64,000 nucleotides of DNA from Octopus sinensis (Eukaryota), in contig NC_043018.1 of the NCBI RefSeq assembly GCF_006345805.1, forward strand, positions 18,104,001 through 18,168,000, read 5' to 3'. Position numbers and translations under genes: made by a program. Below, in pieces: positions 19,908 to 54,801 of the stretch; the stretch's first letter is position 1, and every line of letters starts with the position of its first letter. The notes under the pieces are model-generated. The model saw nothing but the letters and a program-made list of their open reading frames with translations. It was not told the origin of the DNA and ran no database searches.

Positions 19908-19951
19908 CCACTGCAAGAGTTTCCTGTCTTCAAATGACATTCATCAGGTGG
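19908..19951 (-). ncRNA. Hammerhead-like motif, type I, with one core mutation
   Basis: CCAC-CTGATGA-A-TGTC-atttgaa-GACA-G-GAAAC-tctt-GCA-GTGG. The cleavage triplet is GCA instead of NUH. Confidence 0.6.
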
Positions 19952-20835
19952 ATTTCATATCTCTATTCTATATATATATATAATATATATATATATATAT
20001 TATATATATATATCTATTATATATATAGATATATATATATATATAGAGATATATATACGCATATATATAAGAAAGGAAGAAGAGAGAGAGAGAGATGAGA
20101 AGAGCAGAGAGATGAGAAGAGAGAGAGAGAGGTGGTGATCATTCAAAGATTGTCGGGTTCGATATTCAGGCAACTCATTTTAAGATGTTTGAAGCTTTTG
20201 AAATCGTTTCAAAATCTTTATAATATACAACCTTTATGAGATACATTTATATATGCTGTGAACAAAGAGAATAGCTGATAAAAGAATTTGTAATTCCTTC
20301 AGAAGAAAACATCACAAATAATAGAAAATATCCTGAAATATGCCAATGAATGATATGGAATGTATAGTAACAATATCATATTTTAACCGTATTCGTTGGC
20401 CGGGTATCTGTTCACCTTCTTGCACGAGAAAATAGTTTATAGCAATTTATGTGTGCCACCTGAAACAGAGCTTTGGTAACAAGGATTATCTAATCAATAG
20501 AAATATAACACTGTGACGTCATCAGTAGAAATGCCAGGTAAACTGATGGGCGTGTCTTTCTCGCCACAAAAGAAATTACATTATGGTTAAGGAAGAAAGT
20601 ATTGTGTTTGTACCCAGAACAAGCGGTCGATTAAATTAGCTTGCTTTCTCATTAATTACCTATTTCATTCACTTGTGGAATCGTAAATTATAATCATATT
20701 TACGATGCCAGGTTGAAAGCTGTGGTCACTGAAAACACGAGCGTAAATATTCCTTGTCCAGCATGGCGGCAGTGAAATAACCGAGGCAAATAAAAGAATA
20801 ATGAATTTATTCTATCTTTTTTTTTTTTTTTTTTG

Positions 20836-21049
20836 TACTTGTTTCAGTCATTTGACTGCGGCCATGCTGGGGCACCGCCTTTAGAGTGGTGAAAGAGTAC
20901 AGCAGGGATCACCACCATCCCCTGCCGGAGCCTCGTGGAGCTTTTAGGTGTTTTCGCTCAATAAACACACACAACGCCCGGTCTGGGAATCGAAACCGCG
21001 ATCCTCCGACCGCAAGTCCGCTGCCCTAACCACTGGGCCATTGCGCCTC
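20836..21049 (-). mobile_element. Chimeric SINE: family A head (20886-21049) joined to family B tail (20836-20885) plus poly(A)
   Basis: Minus strand ...ctctttcaccac|tctaaaggcggtgccccagcatggccgcagtcaaatgactgaaacaagtac(A)n. Confidence 0.8.
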
Positions 21050-22645
21050 TCTGTATTATTTGTTTATATAATTGGTTTCTTTACATATTTCAACATCGTT
21101 TTAAGTTACAAACTTTGAGACAATTCTGAAAACCAATTCTTATAAATTTTGTAAAGGATTATACCTGAAATTCAGTATAAAGGTCACTAAAATTAATTTA
21201 GCATAATGAATTATGCGTTCAAGCTGACAAGCGCGAATGTCAGTACAGTCAGTATTCAATGCAGTAAAATATTTCTCTGAGCTCATTTCTTATAATTGTT
21301 TTGCTTAACACTCCACTTATTTTCTAAGCCTCCATTTCTAATAGAATTTCTATTTTGAAAATATTTTGAAAATATTTTGCGCAATTGAAGACCAATACAG
21401 ATGAAAACAAACATAAGTGGTAACTTGCACCTGATAACTGGACATTTACGTTAGACACTCGACTCACAGTTATTTCTAGTTGGAATGTAGGTATGTACAT
21501 ATATATATATATAATATATATATAATATATATATATATATATATATATATTGGAAGCACTCCGTCGGTTACGACGACGAGGGTTCCGGTTGTTCCGAATC
21601 AACGGAACAGCCTGCTCGTGAAATTAACGTGTAAGTGGCTGAGCACTCCACAGACACGTGTACCCTTAACGTAGTTCTCGGGGATATTCAGCGTGACACA
21701 GAGAGTGACAAGGCCGGCCCTTTGAAATACAGGTACAACAGAAACAGGAAGTAAGAGTGAGAGAAAGTTGTGGTGAAAGAGTACAGCAGGATCACCACCA
21801 TCCCCTGCCGGAGCCTCGTGGAGCTTTTAGGTGTTTTCGCTCAATAAACACACACAACGCCCGGTCTGGGAATCGAAACCGCGATCCTCCGACCGCAAGT
21901 CCGCTGCCCTAACCACTGGGCCATTGCGCCTCTCTGTATTATTTGTTTATATAATTGGTTTCTTTACATATTTCAACATCGTTTTAAGTTACAAACTTTG
22001 AGACAATTCTGAAAACCAATTCTTATAAATTTTGTAAAGGATTATACCTGAAATTCAGTATAAAGGTCACTAAAATTAATTTAGCATAATGAATTATGCG
22101 TTCAAGCTGACAAGCGCGAATGTCAGTACAGTCAGTATTCAATGCAGTAAAATATTTCTCTGAGCTCATTTCTTATAATTGTTTTGCTTAACACTCCACT
22201 TATTTTCTAAGCCTCCATTTCTAATAGAATTTCTATTTTGAAAATATTTTGAAAATATTTTGCGCAATTGAAGACACAATACAGATGAAAACAAACATAA
22301 GTGGTAACTTGCACCTGATAACTGGACATTTACGTTAGACACTCGACTCACAGTTATTTCTAGTTGGAATGTAGGTATGTACATATATATATATATATTA
22401 TATATATATATATATATATATATATTGGAAGCACTCCGTCGGTTACGACGACGAGGGTTCCGGTTGTTCCGAATCAACGGAACAGCCTGCTCGTGAAATT
22501 AACGTGTAAGTGGCTGAGCACTCCACAGACACGTGTACCCTTAACGTAGTTCTCGGGGATATTCAGCGTGACACAGAGAGTGACAAGGCCGGCCCTTTGA
22601 AATACAGGTACAACAGAAACAGGAAGTAAGAGTGAGAGAAAGTTG
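20886..22645. repeat. About 880-bp tandem segmental duplication bounded by SINE A copies
   Basis: Unique sequence 21050-21550 is repeated near-identically at 21932-22425; gtggtgaaagag recurs at 20886, 21770 and 22645. Confidence 0.93.
21552..21930 (-). mobile_element. SINE A1 (recombinant copy)
   Basis: Full-length match to 2491-2878. Confidence 0.92.
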
Positions 22646-22810
22646 TGGTGAAAGAGTACAGCAGGGATCACCACCATCCGCTGCCGGAGCCTCGTGGAAC
22701 TTTTTTAGGTGTTTTCGCTCAATAAACACTCACAACGCCCGGTCTGGGAATCGAAACCGCGATCCTATGACCGCGAGTCCGCTGTCCTAACCACTGGGCC
22801 ATGCGCCTCC
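22427..22810 (-). mobile_element. SINE A1
   Basis: Full-length match to 2491-2878. Confidence 0.92.
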
Positions 22811-23070
22811 ACACACACACACATATATATATATATATATATAATATATATATATATATATATATATATATATTATATATATATATATATATATATATAT
22901 ATATATATATATATATATATATATATATATATTATATATATATATATATATATCTATATATATATATATATATATATATATATGTATATATATATATATA
23001 TATATATATATTATATATATATATACATACATACATACATACATACATACATACATACATACACACATAT
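22811..23070. repeat. (CA)n/(TA)n/(TACA)n microsatellite
   Basis: Direct reading. Confidence 0.97.
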
Positions 23071-23575
23071 GTAGAAGGTTGAAAAGTAACACACGAGTTG
23101 ATATGTATAAGGAAAATAAAACAAGGTAGAAAATTCTAAAATAGTTTTATCATGAAATGCATTTTGCTTGCACACACACACACACACACACACACACACA
23201 CACACACACACAGGTACACACTATCCAAGTATGTCTGCATCCATACGTGTCTACGTGCATAAGTACACCATGATCCATTCACACGCGGACGAGTGTCGAT
23301 TCATATGAAAAAGGAAGTGAGCAAAATACGACCACTTTTAAGTTCGATTTAAAAAAAAAAAATTTAAAGATAATCAAAACAAAGGTGCATCATTTCGAGA
23401 ACCCAATAAACATTTCTACCAAATTTAGTGAAAATCTGTTCATAATAATAATAATAATAATAGCTTTTACTATAGGCACAAGACCTGAATTGGGGAAGGG
23501 GTGGATTAGTCGATTGCATCGACCTCGGTTTTTTTTGTGGTACTTAATTTATCGGCCCTGAAAGGATGAGAGTAA

Positions 23576-23687
23576 ACAAGAATGATCCTTTGGGAGCTTT
23601 GTGGAAATCAGGGACTACAAAGAAAAAAGACGTGGTATGAGCAAACCCCAGGAACCAACGAGCATGCAGAATGCAAAATCCTGTGGG
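23576..23687 (+). pseudogene. Short R4/Dong-like LINE relic between two old C-type SINE pieces
   Basis: RMILWELCGNQGLQRKKTWYEQTPGTNEHAECKILW resembles the HW.LC....WYEH.P....KILWD segment upstream of the RLE domain. Confidence 0.55.
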
Positions 23688-53035: not shown

Positions 53036-53672
53036 GGATAGATAGATAGATAGATAGATAGATAGATATAGATAGATAGATAGATGGATAGATAGATAGA
53101 TAGATAGATAGATAGATATAGATAGATAGATAGATAGATAGATAGATAGATAGATAGATAGATAGATAGATAGATAGATAATTATAGATAGATAGATAGA
53201 TGGATAGATAGATAGATAGATAGATAGATAGATAGATAGATAGATAGATAGATAGATATAGATAGATAGATGGATAGATAGATAGATAGATAGATAGTTA
53301 TAGATAGATGGATAGATAGATAGATAGATAGATAGATAGATAGATAGATAGATAGATAGATATAGATAGATAGATGGATAGATAGATAGATAGTTATAGA
53401 TAGATAGATGGATGGATAGATAGATAGATAGATAGATAGAGATAGATAGATAGATAGATATATAGATAGATATAGATAGATATATAGATAGATAGATAGA
53501 AGATAGATAGATAGATAATATAGATAGATAGATAGATAGTAGTTATAGATAGATAGATAGATAGAGAGATAGATAGATAGAGAGATAGATAGATAGATAG
53601 ATAGATAGATAGATAGATAGATAGATAGATAGATAGATAGATAGATAGATAGATAGATAGATAGATAGATAG
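53036..53672. repeat. Long (GATA)n microsatellite
   Basis: Direct reading. Confidence 0.98.
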
Positions 53673-53894
53673 TTAAATAGATAGATTGATTGACTGATAG
53701 ATATAGAAATAGATGCAGAGATTTATAAATCCATAGAGAATTTATAAATTTCTGCATCGATATAATTGTGTGTGTGTGTGTGTTCTTCTGCAAAATAGCT
53801 TACAAGACGCCACAGAATATCGAACCAGACACACAAGCTTTAAGTAAGCAGTCTGTATTATTAAGTTAAGCGACCCGTCGTTTAATATATATGC

Positions 53895-54019
53895 AAAATA
53901 TATGTGGTCAGTACCTTGCTTACCAACCACATGGTCCTGGGTTCAGTCCCACTACGTGGAACCTTGGGCAAGTGTCTTCTGCTATAGCCTCGGGCCGGCC
54001 AAGGCCCTGTGAGTGGATT
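53895..54019 (+). mobile_element. SINE B 5' part
   Basis: ttgcttaccaaccacatggtcctgggttcagtcccactacgtggaaccttgggcaagtgtcttctgctatagcc. Confidence 0.82.
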
Positions 54020-54294
54020 ACAACAATTACTACTCTCCTTCCATTATTACCAAATCTAAAACATATAATTTACGAGCGGATGTTATTTGTGAAGAACATG
54101 CGATCTGTAAAGCGGTGCGACATGGTTTCTTTCTATCTAGCTGACTTGAACACAAATATATATACCTGCATGAGTTCATGCATGTATATATATATATACA
54201 TGTATATATATATACATGTATATATATATGTATATATGTATATATATATATATATATATATATATATATATATATTATATATATATATATATAT

Positions 54295-54474
54295 ATAAGC
54301 AAGGAAAAATTGTAAAAATGCAGAATGCTCAATTGAAAGAAAATTTTAATGAAATGAGAAATTGATAAAATATATAAATATATATTAATTCAAACCGGTT
54401 TTCGTCAATTTCTCATTTCATTAAAATTTTCTTTCAATTGAGCATTCTGCATTTTACAATTTTTCCTTACTTAT
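54295..54474. repeat. Near-perfect ~70-bp inverted repeat with a ~39-nt loop
   Basis: 54295-54365 vs 54405-54474: 1 mismatch and 1 indel. Confidence 0.93.
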
Positions 54475-54717
54475 CATTTCTCCACGTGCGGTCAACACAA
54501 CTCCACCATTTATTGATCTATATATATATATATATATATATATATATATATATATATATATATAAACAGAATGTTTTGAAATAACTGGCTACCGGTGATT
54601 ATCTGATCAAAACTTGAAGATAGTTTGCATCTAGATTAACGAACAATTCAACATCCTACAGTGTAGAGTGGATAAACGGAAAACAGTAACTGTTAAATCA
54701 AAGGATATTTAAGTGAA

Positions 54718-54801
54718 GACCCTGAAGAAACTGCACTTGTATTAAAGTCTGTTTGCAATTGCAACGGTTACTAATCGAAGCAGTAGAAGCATGTGTAGGT
54801 T
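54718..54801 (+). ncRNA. Hammerhead-like motif (GAAG instead of GAAA)
   Basis: GACC-CTGAAGA-a-ACTGC...GCAGT-a-GAAGC-atgt-GTA-GGTT. Confidence 0.5.

Follow-up and report, generated by a model that had tools for sequence, protein, structure and literature searches.

Minimal type I hammerhead ribozymes are known from metazoan Penelope-like elements (PLEs). Those described by Cervera and de la Pena (2014; PMC4209133) have a short stem I, an extra base after A9, a palindromic helix III and a U3-A8 variant; there are many families per genome, and most are single motifs from truncated PLEs. The ribozyme features reported below agree with that description, although octopus is absent from its text and searchable supplement and no core with U at position 6 was found there. 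For Hydra-clade PLEs, Craig et al. (2021; PMC8557442) list a U·U at 10.1/11.1, long palindromes and (TA)n insertion, all of which we saw here. Neptune-clade PLEs have DKG, a reverse transcriptase (RT), a CX2-5CxxC linker, a C-terminal GIY-YIG-like domain, a 3' hammerhead fold and (TA)n at the 3' end. Penelope/Poseidon PLEs combine an RT with a C-terminal endonuclease that lacks a Zn-finger linker, a 3' hammerhead, an inverted 5' copy, an optional tail at one end and no (TA)n preference; inverted partners with a tail on one arm have thus already been described for PLEs (PMC8557442, PMC11167929).

Shorter relatives are also known. Animal non-LTR retrozymes (PMC7229834; bioRxiv 10.64898/2026.07.22.740005) are, like the units studied here, short, hammerhead-bearing and related to PLE ends, and they are defined by tandem repeats and circular RNAs, whereas the families here occur dispersed or as inverted copies, with minimal ribozymes. 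The schistosome SINE-like elements SMalpha/Sjalpha are short and non-coding, have a Pol III-type promoter followed by a hammerhead, are often in tandem and self-cleave in vitro; the passage of PMC6765202 that treats them names no PLE parent.

Ten hammerhead motifs in nine repeat families

We analyzed 64 kb of Octopus sinensis DNA (the window), in which ten hammerhead-like motifs had been predicted across 19908..54801. All ten were found at the predicted places. They lie, with related features, in the following units, where C3 is the first core position:

13040..13140, minus strand: family J arm, a U3-A8 hammerhead with its core at 13128
13340..13480, plus strand: family J arm, core at 13347, head-to-head with the 13128 arm
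18150..18270, minus strand: family B remnant, broken off inside stem II (half-motif 18255)
19021..19190, no strand assigned: inverted pair with an apparent hammerhead 3' half (GAAA, palindrome ACAUAUGU, UU), half-motif 19070; no family established
19815..19968, minus strand: family G unit; minimal hammerhead 19908-19951, C3 at 19947; 1207 first-look candidates
33460..33930, minus strand: family C unit; hammerhead 33601-33699, C3 at 33695, long stem II with decayed base, U·U at 10.1/11.1, palindrome ACACGUGU; 232 candidates
33936..34045, plus strand: family E, truncated PLE 3' end, Hydra-clade by its motifs; hammerhead 33961-34027, C3 at 33972, the Hydra-1_Obim motif bar a few decays
39330..39489, minus strand: family A body, PLE 3' end, Penelope/Poseidon-type by its motifs; minimal hammerhead, C3 at 39431, palindrome ACGU, GUU site, one stem II pair lost; 2641 candidates
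39490..39620, plus strand: family A inverted partner arm; tRNA-like segment with A-/B-box-like motifs, then (AAT)n, body absent
42330..42465, plus strand: family B, truncated PLE 3' end, Neptune-type by its motifs; hammerhead-like fold 42369-42405, C3 at 42373, family-fixed U6 (CUGUNGA); 1372 candidates
42466..42560, plus strand: family I remnant; C3 at 42474, U3-A8 type core decayed to UUGAUCA, loop II partly duplicated
42570..42920, plus strand: family D unit; hammerhead 42604-42675, C3 at 42608, U·U at 10.1/11.1, palindrome ACGAUCGU (one change here); 1445 candidates
46530..46765, plus strand: family H unit; hammerhead 46675-46715, C3 at 46678, compensated U3-A8 core UUGAAAA, palindrome ACCGGU (one change here); 1400 candidates
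51220..51390, minus strand: second family A body, C3 at 51319, palindrome G16.2>U, behind internal (AAT)n
54560..54850, plus strand: family F, truncated PLE 3' end, Hydra-type by its motifs; hammerhead 54718-54802, C3 at 54722, long stem II, A15.1>G; 379 candidates

The core attributed to all ten motifs is present in only six of them. Five (33601, 33961, 39391, 42606 and 51279) have CUGANGA, GAAA and U16.1, and the sixth, 42369, has GAAA and U16.1 with U6 in place of A6. The remaining cores deviate by U16.1>C (19908), UUGAUCA (42470), the known U3-A8 form UUGAAAA (46675) or A15.1>G (54718). All window copies but 42369 differ from their family's commonest motif in core, helix or palindrome, and none is a fully canonical hammerhead. 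Four half-motifs had been proposed as well: 18255 is a truncated copy of the 42369 family (B) and 19070 resembles a hammerhead 3' half, whereas hammerhead context was sought at 50705 and 54394 and none was found. Two further sites, 48353 and 35857, are probably unsupported as motifs in the same way. The inverted pair of U3-A8 family J, 13128(-)/13347(+), had been overlooked.

Nine dispersed repeat families (A to I) carry the ten motifs at their 3' ends, and searches of the octopus's own genome returned 232 to 2641 first-look candidates for each of families A to H, in keeping with the several multi-copy families that had been predicted. At the family level, CUGANGA (or UUGANAA), GAAA and NUH are present in A, C, D, E, F, G, H and J, and in I through one intact relative (UUGAUAA, in L312); most window copies are decayed. 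A compensated U3-A8 pair is present in three families. In families A to I, helix III (4 to 9 nt) of one copy can pair with that of another along its whole length or with a single central mismatch, as the predicted minimal type I hammerheads with palindromic stem III require. When two copies were cofolded (families A to I except D), the double hammerhead was the predicted minimum only for G; in A, B, C, E, F, H and I it was 3 to 26 kcal/mol less favorable than the minimum. A head-to-head inverted partner was frequent in some families (A, 21/30 loci; G, 8/20; D, 5/25; H, 5/20) and rare in others (B, 0/25; C, 1/25; E, 0/20; F, 1/20), and direct tandems were scarce throughout (0 to 5 per 20 to 30 loci per family).

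The predicted link to PLEs was borne out by coding sequence. Although the window itself holds no PLE coding sequence, families A, B, E and F extend upstream into it elsewhere in the genome, with RT and GIY-YIG frames found for A, B and E and the endonuclease end only for F; the short units of these families are therefore 5'-truncated PLE ends. Judged by sequence motifs, A (39391, 51279) is of Poseidon type, B (42369) of Neptune type, and E and F (33961, 54718) of Hydra type. Families C, D, G, H, I and J yielded no coding parent (for C, D, G and H, the analysis covered upstream homology mapped within 1.5-kb flanks), so that C, D, G, H and I may be non-autonomous.

We put at about 0.85 the probability of the following reading: each of the ten motifs is a decayed minimal hammerhead fold in the 3' end of a member of one of the nine families, all of them likely inserted as 5'-truncated copies by PLE RT/GIY-YIG proteins. 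From known PLE biology, the endonuclease would nick AT-rich DNA, and reverse transcription would begin near the RNA 3' end, usually stop early and often switch, yielding an inverted second arm, so that ribozyme-bearing ends would build up. Through their palindromic helix III, two motifs would be able to cleave as a dimer, probably with the help of protein. A predicted preference for microsatellites held for five of the six families tested: (TA)n follows the 3' end within 60 nt in B (19/24), D (15/24), G (10/19), H (17/19) and E (11/19), against a background of 7.6%. It failed for family A (1/29 loci), whose (AAT)n is internal to the element and not a target.

Family A and its short form

Upstream of family A, coding sequence for an RT thumb and endonuclease ends ~30 nt before the start of the tRNA-like segment, and the relatives P0121 and P0122 have RVT_1 and no Zn-finger linker. 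The C-terminal endonuclease without that linker places A in the Penelope/Poseidon clade, by motifs drawn from fragments and relatives. Like other members of the clade, A has an inverted partner and an optional tail (~35 nt), which one arm has and the other lacks in 23 of the 24 loci with inverted pairs (P value = 1.5e-6). Unlike them, it carries in its 3' UTR a tRNA-like A/B-box segment as well as an (AAT)n linker. Most copies that extend as far as the segment begin there: among 27 such copies, 17 start at -7..+8, 9 stop inside and 1 continues through (in the random sample alone, 6/8 start there). The segment can be aligned to tRNAs of this genome, with tRNA-Arg(TCT) as the best match (z 6.0 to 8.2), and fell below the thresholds of Rfam and ARAGORN, which did not call it as a tRNA.

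The resulting short form is 270 to 330 nt long and non-coding. It resembles SMalpha/Sjalpha, as far as these are treated in PMC6765202, in its promoter-like head and hammerhead, and differs in being dispersed or head-to-head, in its minimal ribozyme and in being the 3' UTR of an identified PLE. Like tRNA-derived SINEs (SINEBase, PMC3531059), it is <700 nt, with a tRNA-like head and a 3' part common to an autonomous partner; unlike them, it has a PLE rather than a LINE as partner, no simple-repeat tail, and the 3' end, tail pattern and insertion marks of a PLE. The short form is likely non-autonomous. Octopus is reportedly host to three tRNA SINEs, said to have been described by Ohshima and Okada in 1994.

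In the mechanism that we propose, a tRNA-derived internal promoter in the 3' UTR would give a 270- to 330-nt Pol III RNA that the Poseidon protein moves in trans. We give about even odds that the short form is such a PLE-driven SINE, a candidate Pol III unit of about 30,000 copies. Somewhat less than even is the chance that it is a truncation hot spot, where RT, while copying complete Poseidon RNA, would stall or fold back on meeting a small palindrome that overlaps the tRNA-like start. Of 3 long copies folded, 2 are predicted to form a 4-bp hairpin spanning the start, although it is weak, and the inverted pairs at 21 of 30 loci would be products of such folding back. Short copies also share diagnostic bases with younger long copies, so that no separate lineage is shown. 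RNA-seq points the same way: in three runs, examined for family A, reads occurred in both mate directions, 72% extended into unlike flanks, and neither starts nor ends piled up at the tRNA-like start or the predicted cut (short or cleaved RNAs may be missing from libraries of this kind), while 287 reads of one run continued upstream into the parent's UTR. No back-joint indicative of circular RNA was found among the best-supported joints listed. A stall, however, does not readily account for a boundary that coincides with the tRNA-like +1 in non-inverted copies as well (L003, L009, L018, L232 and L279), or for the retained A-/B-box-like motifs and the lack of a T4 run in the 333-nt unit.

Family B and its U6 core

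Family B numbers about 40,000 copies, with long open frames. Upstream of its fold lie frames that reach 975 aa and carry DKG, RVT_1 (E 2.7e-8), CX2-5CxxC and GIY-YIG-like motifs. Of 30 loci found with protein seeds, 15 extend through the complete motif, and 13 others stop earlier, inside the same 3' UTR or element. DKG and the CX2-5CxxC linker before the endonuclease (L370 protein) place B in the Neptune clade by motifs, or possibly in Nematis, which has the same linker. B shares the Neptune traits given above, (TA)n included, and departs from them in its rare inverted partners and in position 6, which is U in all subfamilies seen. Among copies not seeded by the B search, 37/38 have U6; over 62 copies, U occurs 58 times and the A6 of minimal hammerheads once. 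The variation at positions 7 and 17 is that of working hammerheads (for the 38 copies, N7 = A9/U19/C8/G2 and H17 = A30/U6/C2, never G).

The U6 core is predicted to cleave poorly, and the fold has therefore more probably been retained for a structural role than as an efficient ribozyme. We give somewhat less than even odds that it is a working variant rescued by dimerization or by the Neptune protein. Only permissive positions vary across subfamilies, the rest of the core being fixed; a natural A6C variant retains low activity, and a protein-assisted PLE hammerhead has been demonstrated (PMC11167929). Yet activity is low when position 6 is changed (PMC3088659, also the source for A6C), PLE insertion in vitro was unaffected by ribozyme mutants (PMC11167929), and the double hammerhead of B lies 12 kcal/mol above the cofold minimum. 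We did not find in print a fixed U6 core in an abundant Neptune family.

Hydra-type families, families without a coding parent and chance controls

Family E leads upstream into a frame for RT (YRDD) and endonuclease, and its ribozyme and protein match Hydra-1_Obim (File S2 of PMC8557442). The parent of F is represented by an endonuclease C-terminus, coded upstream in L132 and L134. Hydra-1_Obim is the one octopus Hydra family in PMC8557442, whereas several are present in this genome, among them one whose 717-aa frames are intact and whose core is U4C (L295, L299). The L299 protein (717 aa) has RWK, DKT, a CxCX5C linker, and CxxC and CxH around E and N; with its (TA)n insertion it belongs, by motifs, to the Hydra clade as defined in section 11 of PMC8557442, and at L299 a pseudo-LTR partial tandem was seen. 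The ribozyme of C has the architecture of the Hydra-clade ribozymes in File S2. The family motif of G has CUGAUGA, an 8-nt palindrome, ACAAUUGU, and a GUA site, with a broken palindrome and U16.1>C in the window copy; G and D have a common 3' tail.

The original prediction took the units for small, possibly uncharacterized non-autonomous families. Four of the nine are instead truncated ends of coding PLEs, and 33961 is already published as Hydra-1_Obim. The minimal palindromic helix III, extra base after A9, U3-A8 and U10.1-U11.1 are also all in print, which together with the PLE linkage leaves that claim mostly unsupported. In its stronger form, that the units are free-standing retrozymes (short, ORF-less, self-cleaving, circularizing and borrowing a PLE enzyme), we regard it as unlikely. 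It would fit C, D, G, H, I and J, which have no identified coding parent, and D, G and H in particular are numerous, with best matches 93 to 98% alike; animal retrozymes, moreover, have been traced to PLE ends (bioRxiv 10.64898/2026.07.22.740005). Against it stand the scarcity of the direct tandems that define retrozymes, the coding parents of A, B, E and F, and the ribozyme architecture of C and D, which is that listed for coding Hydra elements.

Truncated PLE ends thus remain our reading, and the ten motifs are real, beyond chance. A strict minimal-hammerhead descriptor had no match in the window. Relaxing it to allow one core change and one palindrome mismatch gave 6 matches, only 3 of which belong to the ten, whereas 40 local dinucleotide shuffles averaged 0.55 and never exceeded 3, and the reversed window had 2. 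Genome-wide, over 100 evenly spaced 10-kb stretches, the comparison with shuffled sequence proposed originally gave 13 strict matches versus 0, 0 and 0 (reversed, 1) and 55 relaxed matches versus 8, 10 and 9 (reversed, 10), a relaxed excess of ~46 per Mb. This density (about 13 strict and 46 relaxed per Mb) exceeds the 2,000 to 9,000 per genome of PMC4209133, with descriptors that differ, and makes the window an ordinary locus. The covariance-model search that had also been proposed was silent: Rfam gave no match at gathering score and none over 33570-34050 at E<=10. Despite this silence, the lack of strict window matches and the unsupported sites named above, we rejected a chance origin in AT-rich repetitive DNA, whose probability is negligible, for the ten main motifs, given the strict genome excess, the intact family motifs with compensated U3-A8 pairs and the match to a published ribozyme.

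A tRNA-like segment in a PLE 3' UTR, together with a putative PLE-driven SINE, was not found in print. Because its short copies start at that segment, family A may well include a SINE moved by Penelope enzymes.

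Hammerhead motifs in the window and across the genome

The ten hammerhead-like motifs of the original prediction were all present, and they belong to nine repeat families (A to I).

Hammerhead motifs of the window, with repeat family and basis of assignment
39391 (-) and 51279 (-): family A, own-genome search
42369 (+): family B, own-genome search
33601 (-): family C, own-genome search
42606 (+): family D, own-genome search
33961 (+): family E, own-genome search
54718 (+): family F, own-genome search
19908 (-): family G, own-genome search
46675 (+): family H, own-genome search
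42470 (+): family I, one intact relative, in locus L312

We searched the window, which has 35% G+C and abundant microsatellites, with two descriptors. The strict one required CUGANGA or UUGANAA, a stem I of at least 3, a stem II of at least 4, GAAA, a palindromic helix III and UH; the relaxed one tolerated one core change and one palindrome mismatch. The strict descriptor matched nothing; the relaxed descriptor gave 6 matches, where 40 local dinucleotide shuffles averaged 0.55 and never exceeded 3. Across a random sample of 100 evenly spaced 10-kb stretches, strict matches numbered 13 (0, 0 and 0 in shuffles, 1 in reversed sequence) and relaxed matches 55 (8 to 10 in controls). The relaxed rate of the window (6 per 64 kb) is less than twice the genome-wide rate, and the window is therefore no special locus. 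Extrapolated from this 1-Mb sample to the genome of 2.72 Gb, the total would be about 35,000 motifs by the strict descriptor and 125,000 by the relaxed one. Rfam called no hammerhead in the window at the gathering score, and an E-value scan was dominated by microsatellite matches, with no hammerhead among the matches listed (the best 150 of 248); a repeat search likewise recovered mostly microsatellites. Four proposed half-motifs fared unevenly: 18255 is a truncated family B copy and 19070 is plausible, and support was lacking for 50705 and 54394. We rejected two further descriptor matches, one at 48353, with no relative among the loci examined, and one at 35857, in a repeat whose relatives lose the core.

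Eight DNA searches of the octopus genome assigned nine of the ten motifs to eight multi-copy families, in each of which the complete fold was the commonest motif. The core was canonical in 44/51 copies of A, 22/23 of C, 13/13 of D, 21/27 of E, 8/16 of F and 14/15 of G, and was UUGAAAA in 12/12 copies of H, these being mostly best matches and hence no random draw. Pairing was kept, as had been claimed, although the stems were wholly unlike from family to family, and a compensated U3-A8 pair was found in H, in I and in a further family, J, present as a pair at 13128(-)/13347(+). The window copies are decayed, and only that at 42369 is equal to its own family. In the random megabase, A had 10 to 13 matches, B 14 to 17, H 4, J 2 and the remaining families 0 to 2, which scales to roughly 30,000 copies of A and 40,000 of B. 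In all the families modelled (A, B, C, E, F, G, H and I), helix III can pair from one copy to another, with the double hammerhead as the predicted cofold minimum in G only; single-strand folding z-scores were ordinary except in family C (-2.8).

The flanks and the random sample held at least 11 more strict hammerhead types unmatched to the window families (loci L150, L163, L227, L239, L062, L082, L086, L206, L207, L218, L232 and L256), and 23070-23160 of the window is a family H 3' remnant without ribozyme. Other kinds of repeat were also seen in the window. Decayed frames beside (TAA)n tracts (24945-25277, 31202-31600, 51902-52390, 61789-62486 and 63043-63378) resemble LINEs of the R4/Dong type. 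A 277-nt repeat in five copies (21514-21790, 22389-22665, 43149-43711 and 45328-45604), two of them identical and inside an 875-nt duplication, resembles a further tRNA-derived SINE.

Penelope-like parents and insertion marks

The supposed linkage to Penelope-like elements (PLEs) held for families A, B, E and F, and none of C, D, G, H, I and J was traced to a parent; the 64-kb window itself contains no PLE coding sequence. Clades were assigned by motifs, with no tree: family A corresponds to the 3' terminus of a Penelope/Poseidon-type element, family B to that of a Neptune-type element with frames of up to 975 aa, and a Hydra-like endonuclease end lies upstream of family F. Upstream of family E lies a frame with reverse transcriptase (RT) and endonuclease, and the ribozyme and protein of E match Hydra-1_Obim of the PMC8557442 supplement (Craig et al. 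2021). A younger relative has intact 717-aa frames with the Hydra marks RWK, DKT and CxCX5C and, at locus L299, a pseudo-LTR. File S2 of PMC8557442 lists U.U at 10.1/11.1 and long palindromes, as in C and D. For one of the parent proteins, a relative has been annotated in a species of Octopus. Pfam recognised neither the Hydra proteins nor the family A fragments, finding RVT_1 in the Neptune frames only; NCBIfam gave a weak GIY-YIG match (E 0.16), and the examined proteins matched no solved structure. Among L295, L299 and other Hydra loci in L295-L315, a young Hydra-clade family, that of the intact 717-aa frames, has the core CCGAAGA (U4C) in 12/16 copies and an extra U ahead of GAAA.

In the core of family B, position 6 was U in 58 of 62 copies; among the 38 copies that came from elsewhere than the B search it was U in 37. 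Every one of the 15 complete motifs lying behind Neptune frames also had U there. N7 differed by subfamily and included each of the four bases, and H17 was A, U or C, never G. This pattern suggests that the fold is still under constraint. Changes at A6 are reported to leave low activity (PMC3088659), and PLE insertion in vitro was unaffected by ribozyme mutants (PMC11167929). Despite U6, family B is the most abundant hammerhead family of the genome. A literature search for A6U hammerheads gave a single entry, on twister ribozymes.

Head-to-head inverted partners were found at 21/30 loci of A, 8/20 of G, 5/25 of D and 5/20 of H, and at 0 to 1 per 20 to 25 loci in B, C, E and F. There were few direct tandems. 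In 24 of 25 family A pairs (23/24 loci; P value = 1.5e-6), one arm and one only bore the optional 3' tail, of about 35 nt. Inverted partners and one-arm tails are both known PLE marks (PMC8557442 and PMC11167929). The microsatellite preference that had been proposed was borne out in B, D, E, G and H, where (TA)n followed the 3' end far more often than the 7.6% background, but not in A (1/29), a difference that agrees with the published link between a Zn-finger linker and (TA)n targeting (PMC8557442). PLEs nick AT-rich DNA and begin reverse transcription near the RNA 3' end (PMC11167929), with frequent 5' truncation and inversion (PMC8557442), and cleavage by minimal hammerheads is low and dimer dependent (PMC4209133). 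We infer that the window families are most likely the accumulated 3' ends left by such insertion events, bearing putative ribozymes.

Three arrangements in the window were also observed. At 42330-42920, B, I and D stand head to tail with nearly no spacer, I starting where B is cut off; this array may have arisen by template jumping, or by insertions into PLE ends that were already in place. At 33460-34045, C (-) and E (+) lie head to head about 10 nt apart, resembling the within-family inverted pairs. At 54300-54560, an inverted pair of another repeat, in which the hammerhead is absent and which includes 54394, lies directly 5' of the family F copy.

Short form of family A

In family A, the Poseidon stop codon is followed, after about 30 nt, by a segment of 75 nt bearing A- and B-box-like motifs, and then by (AAT)n, the ribozyme and the tail. 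The boxes were identified by their consensus, and the segment was also compared with the tRNAs of the genome, aligning best, among the nine tRNA types covered, to tRNA-Arg(TCT) (z 6.0 to 8.2 against 200 shuffles). Neither Rfam nor ARAGORN called it a tRNA, and ARAGORN, run on the window and on 24 loci of family A, reported none. A ribozyme body followed 40 of 45 heads (8/11 in the random sample). Once 11 loci with the junction within the seed query were dropped, and with the arms of one pair not independent, 17 of the 27 copies reaching the segment started at -7 to +8, 9 ended inside it and 1 continued past; in the random sample only, 6/8 started at its beginning. A T4 run is absent from the unit; this accords with Pol III transcription but, by our estimate, would arise by chance in about one case in three.

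We put a probability of about one half on the reading that a Poseidon element took a tRNA-derived Pol III promoter into its 3' UTR and spawned a hammerhead SINE of 270 to 330 nt, moved in about 30,000 copies by a Penelope enzyme and not a LINE, alongside which family B, its core fixed for A6U, has reached about 40,000 copies. For family A, the competing explanation, in which the short form is an RT stop, stands at about even odds with the PLE-driven Pol III SINE. It is favoured by the diagnostic bases, common to short and younger long copies, by a small hairpin spanning the tRNA-like start, and by three RNA-seq runs (5,122 to 7,141 family A reads per ~12 million records) in which read starts and ends did not pile up, mate directions were equal and 72% of reads continued into unlike flanks. 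Tested on the same bases, a separate lineage of short copies found no support. The reading of family A as a free-standing SINE with no assigned parent was dropped, loose read ends and locus L262 having led to the coding parent.

Among L376-L405, long A copies comprise an older and a younger subfamily, in which the A-box-like motif differs at purine positions and the B-box-like motif is kept. At L262:6360-7140, two fragments resembling R4/Dong LINE ends sit inside the (AAT)n linker of an old copy of family A, and this suggests that the linker is their target.

Known biology and significance

The window feature is real and mostly known biology, with one motif matching a ribozyme published for Octopus bimaculoides; the new parts are families A and B. 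PMC4209133 describes minimal PLE hammerheads, their additional base following A9, the U3-A8 form and the palindromic helix III; U10.1-U11.1 and A6C variants are in PMC3088659, and octopus Hydra and Naiad elements in PMC8557442. Retrozymes are treated as PLE derivatives in bioRxiv 10.64898/2026.07.22.740005, in the accessible part of which no mollusc is among the sampled classes, with further background in PMC7229834. In the repeat annotation of O. vulgaris (PMC13282606), 31 Penelope-like families count as recently active and 893 SINE families as unclassified, ribozymes being unmentioned in the sections available, and a giant squid paper lists 235 Rfam hammerheads. The nearest description to the family A short form is schistosome SMalpha (PMC6765202). 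The literature compared described neither a tRNA-headed SINE moved by a PLE nor a hammerhead family with A6U. Sources beyond that comparison may contain either: Ohshima and Okada 1994, Lunse et al. 2017, Ferbeyre et al. 1998, Repbase, Dfam, figures, one PMC4209133 supplement and the bioRxiv supplements.

One octopus genome would have on the order of 100,000 hammerhead motifs, as extrapolated from 1 Mb, that are invisible to Rfam. SINEs are LINE dependent by the definition of SINEBase (PMC3531059), against which a short tRNA-headed element of Penelope parentage, bearing Penelope insertion marks, would represent a different pairing. If the Pol III reading is true, PLEs would count among the drivers of SINEs, the parent being observed as it gives rise to one, and the small size of the short form would make it a convenient substrate in work on the choice of RNA by PLE enzymes. 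The role of PLE hammerheads has been called unclear (PMC8557442) and they proved dispensable in vitro (PMC11167929); with family B and its fixed core change beside canonical, U3-A8 and U4C cores in one genome, that question becomes directly testable. Family B, if our reading of it is true, would be a natural test of whether PLEs require ribozyme cleavage.
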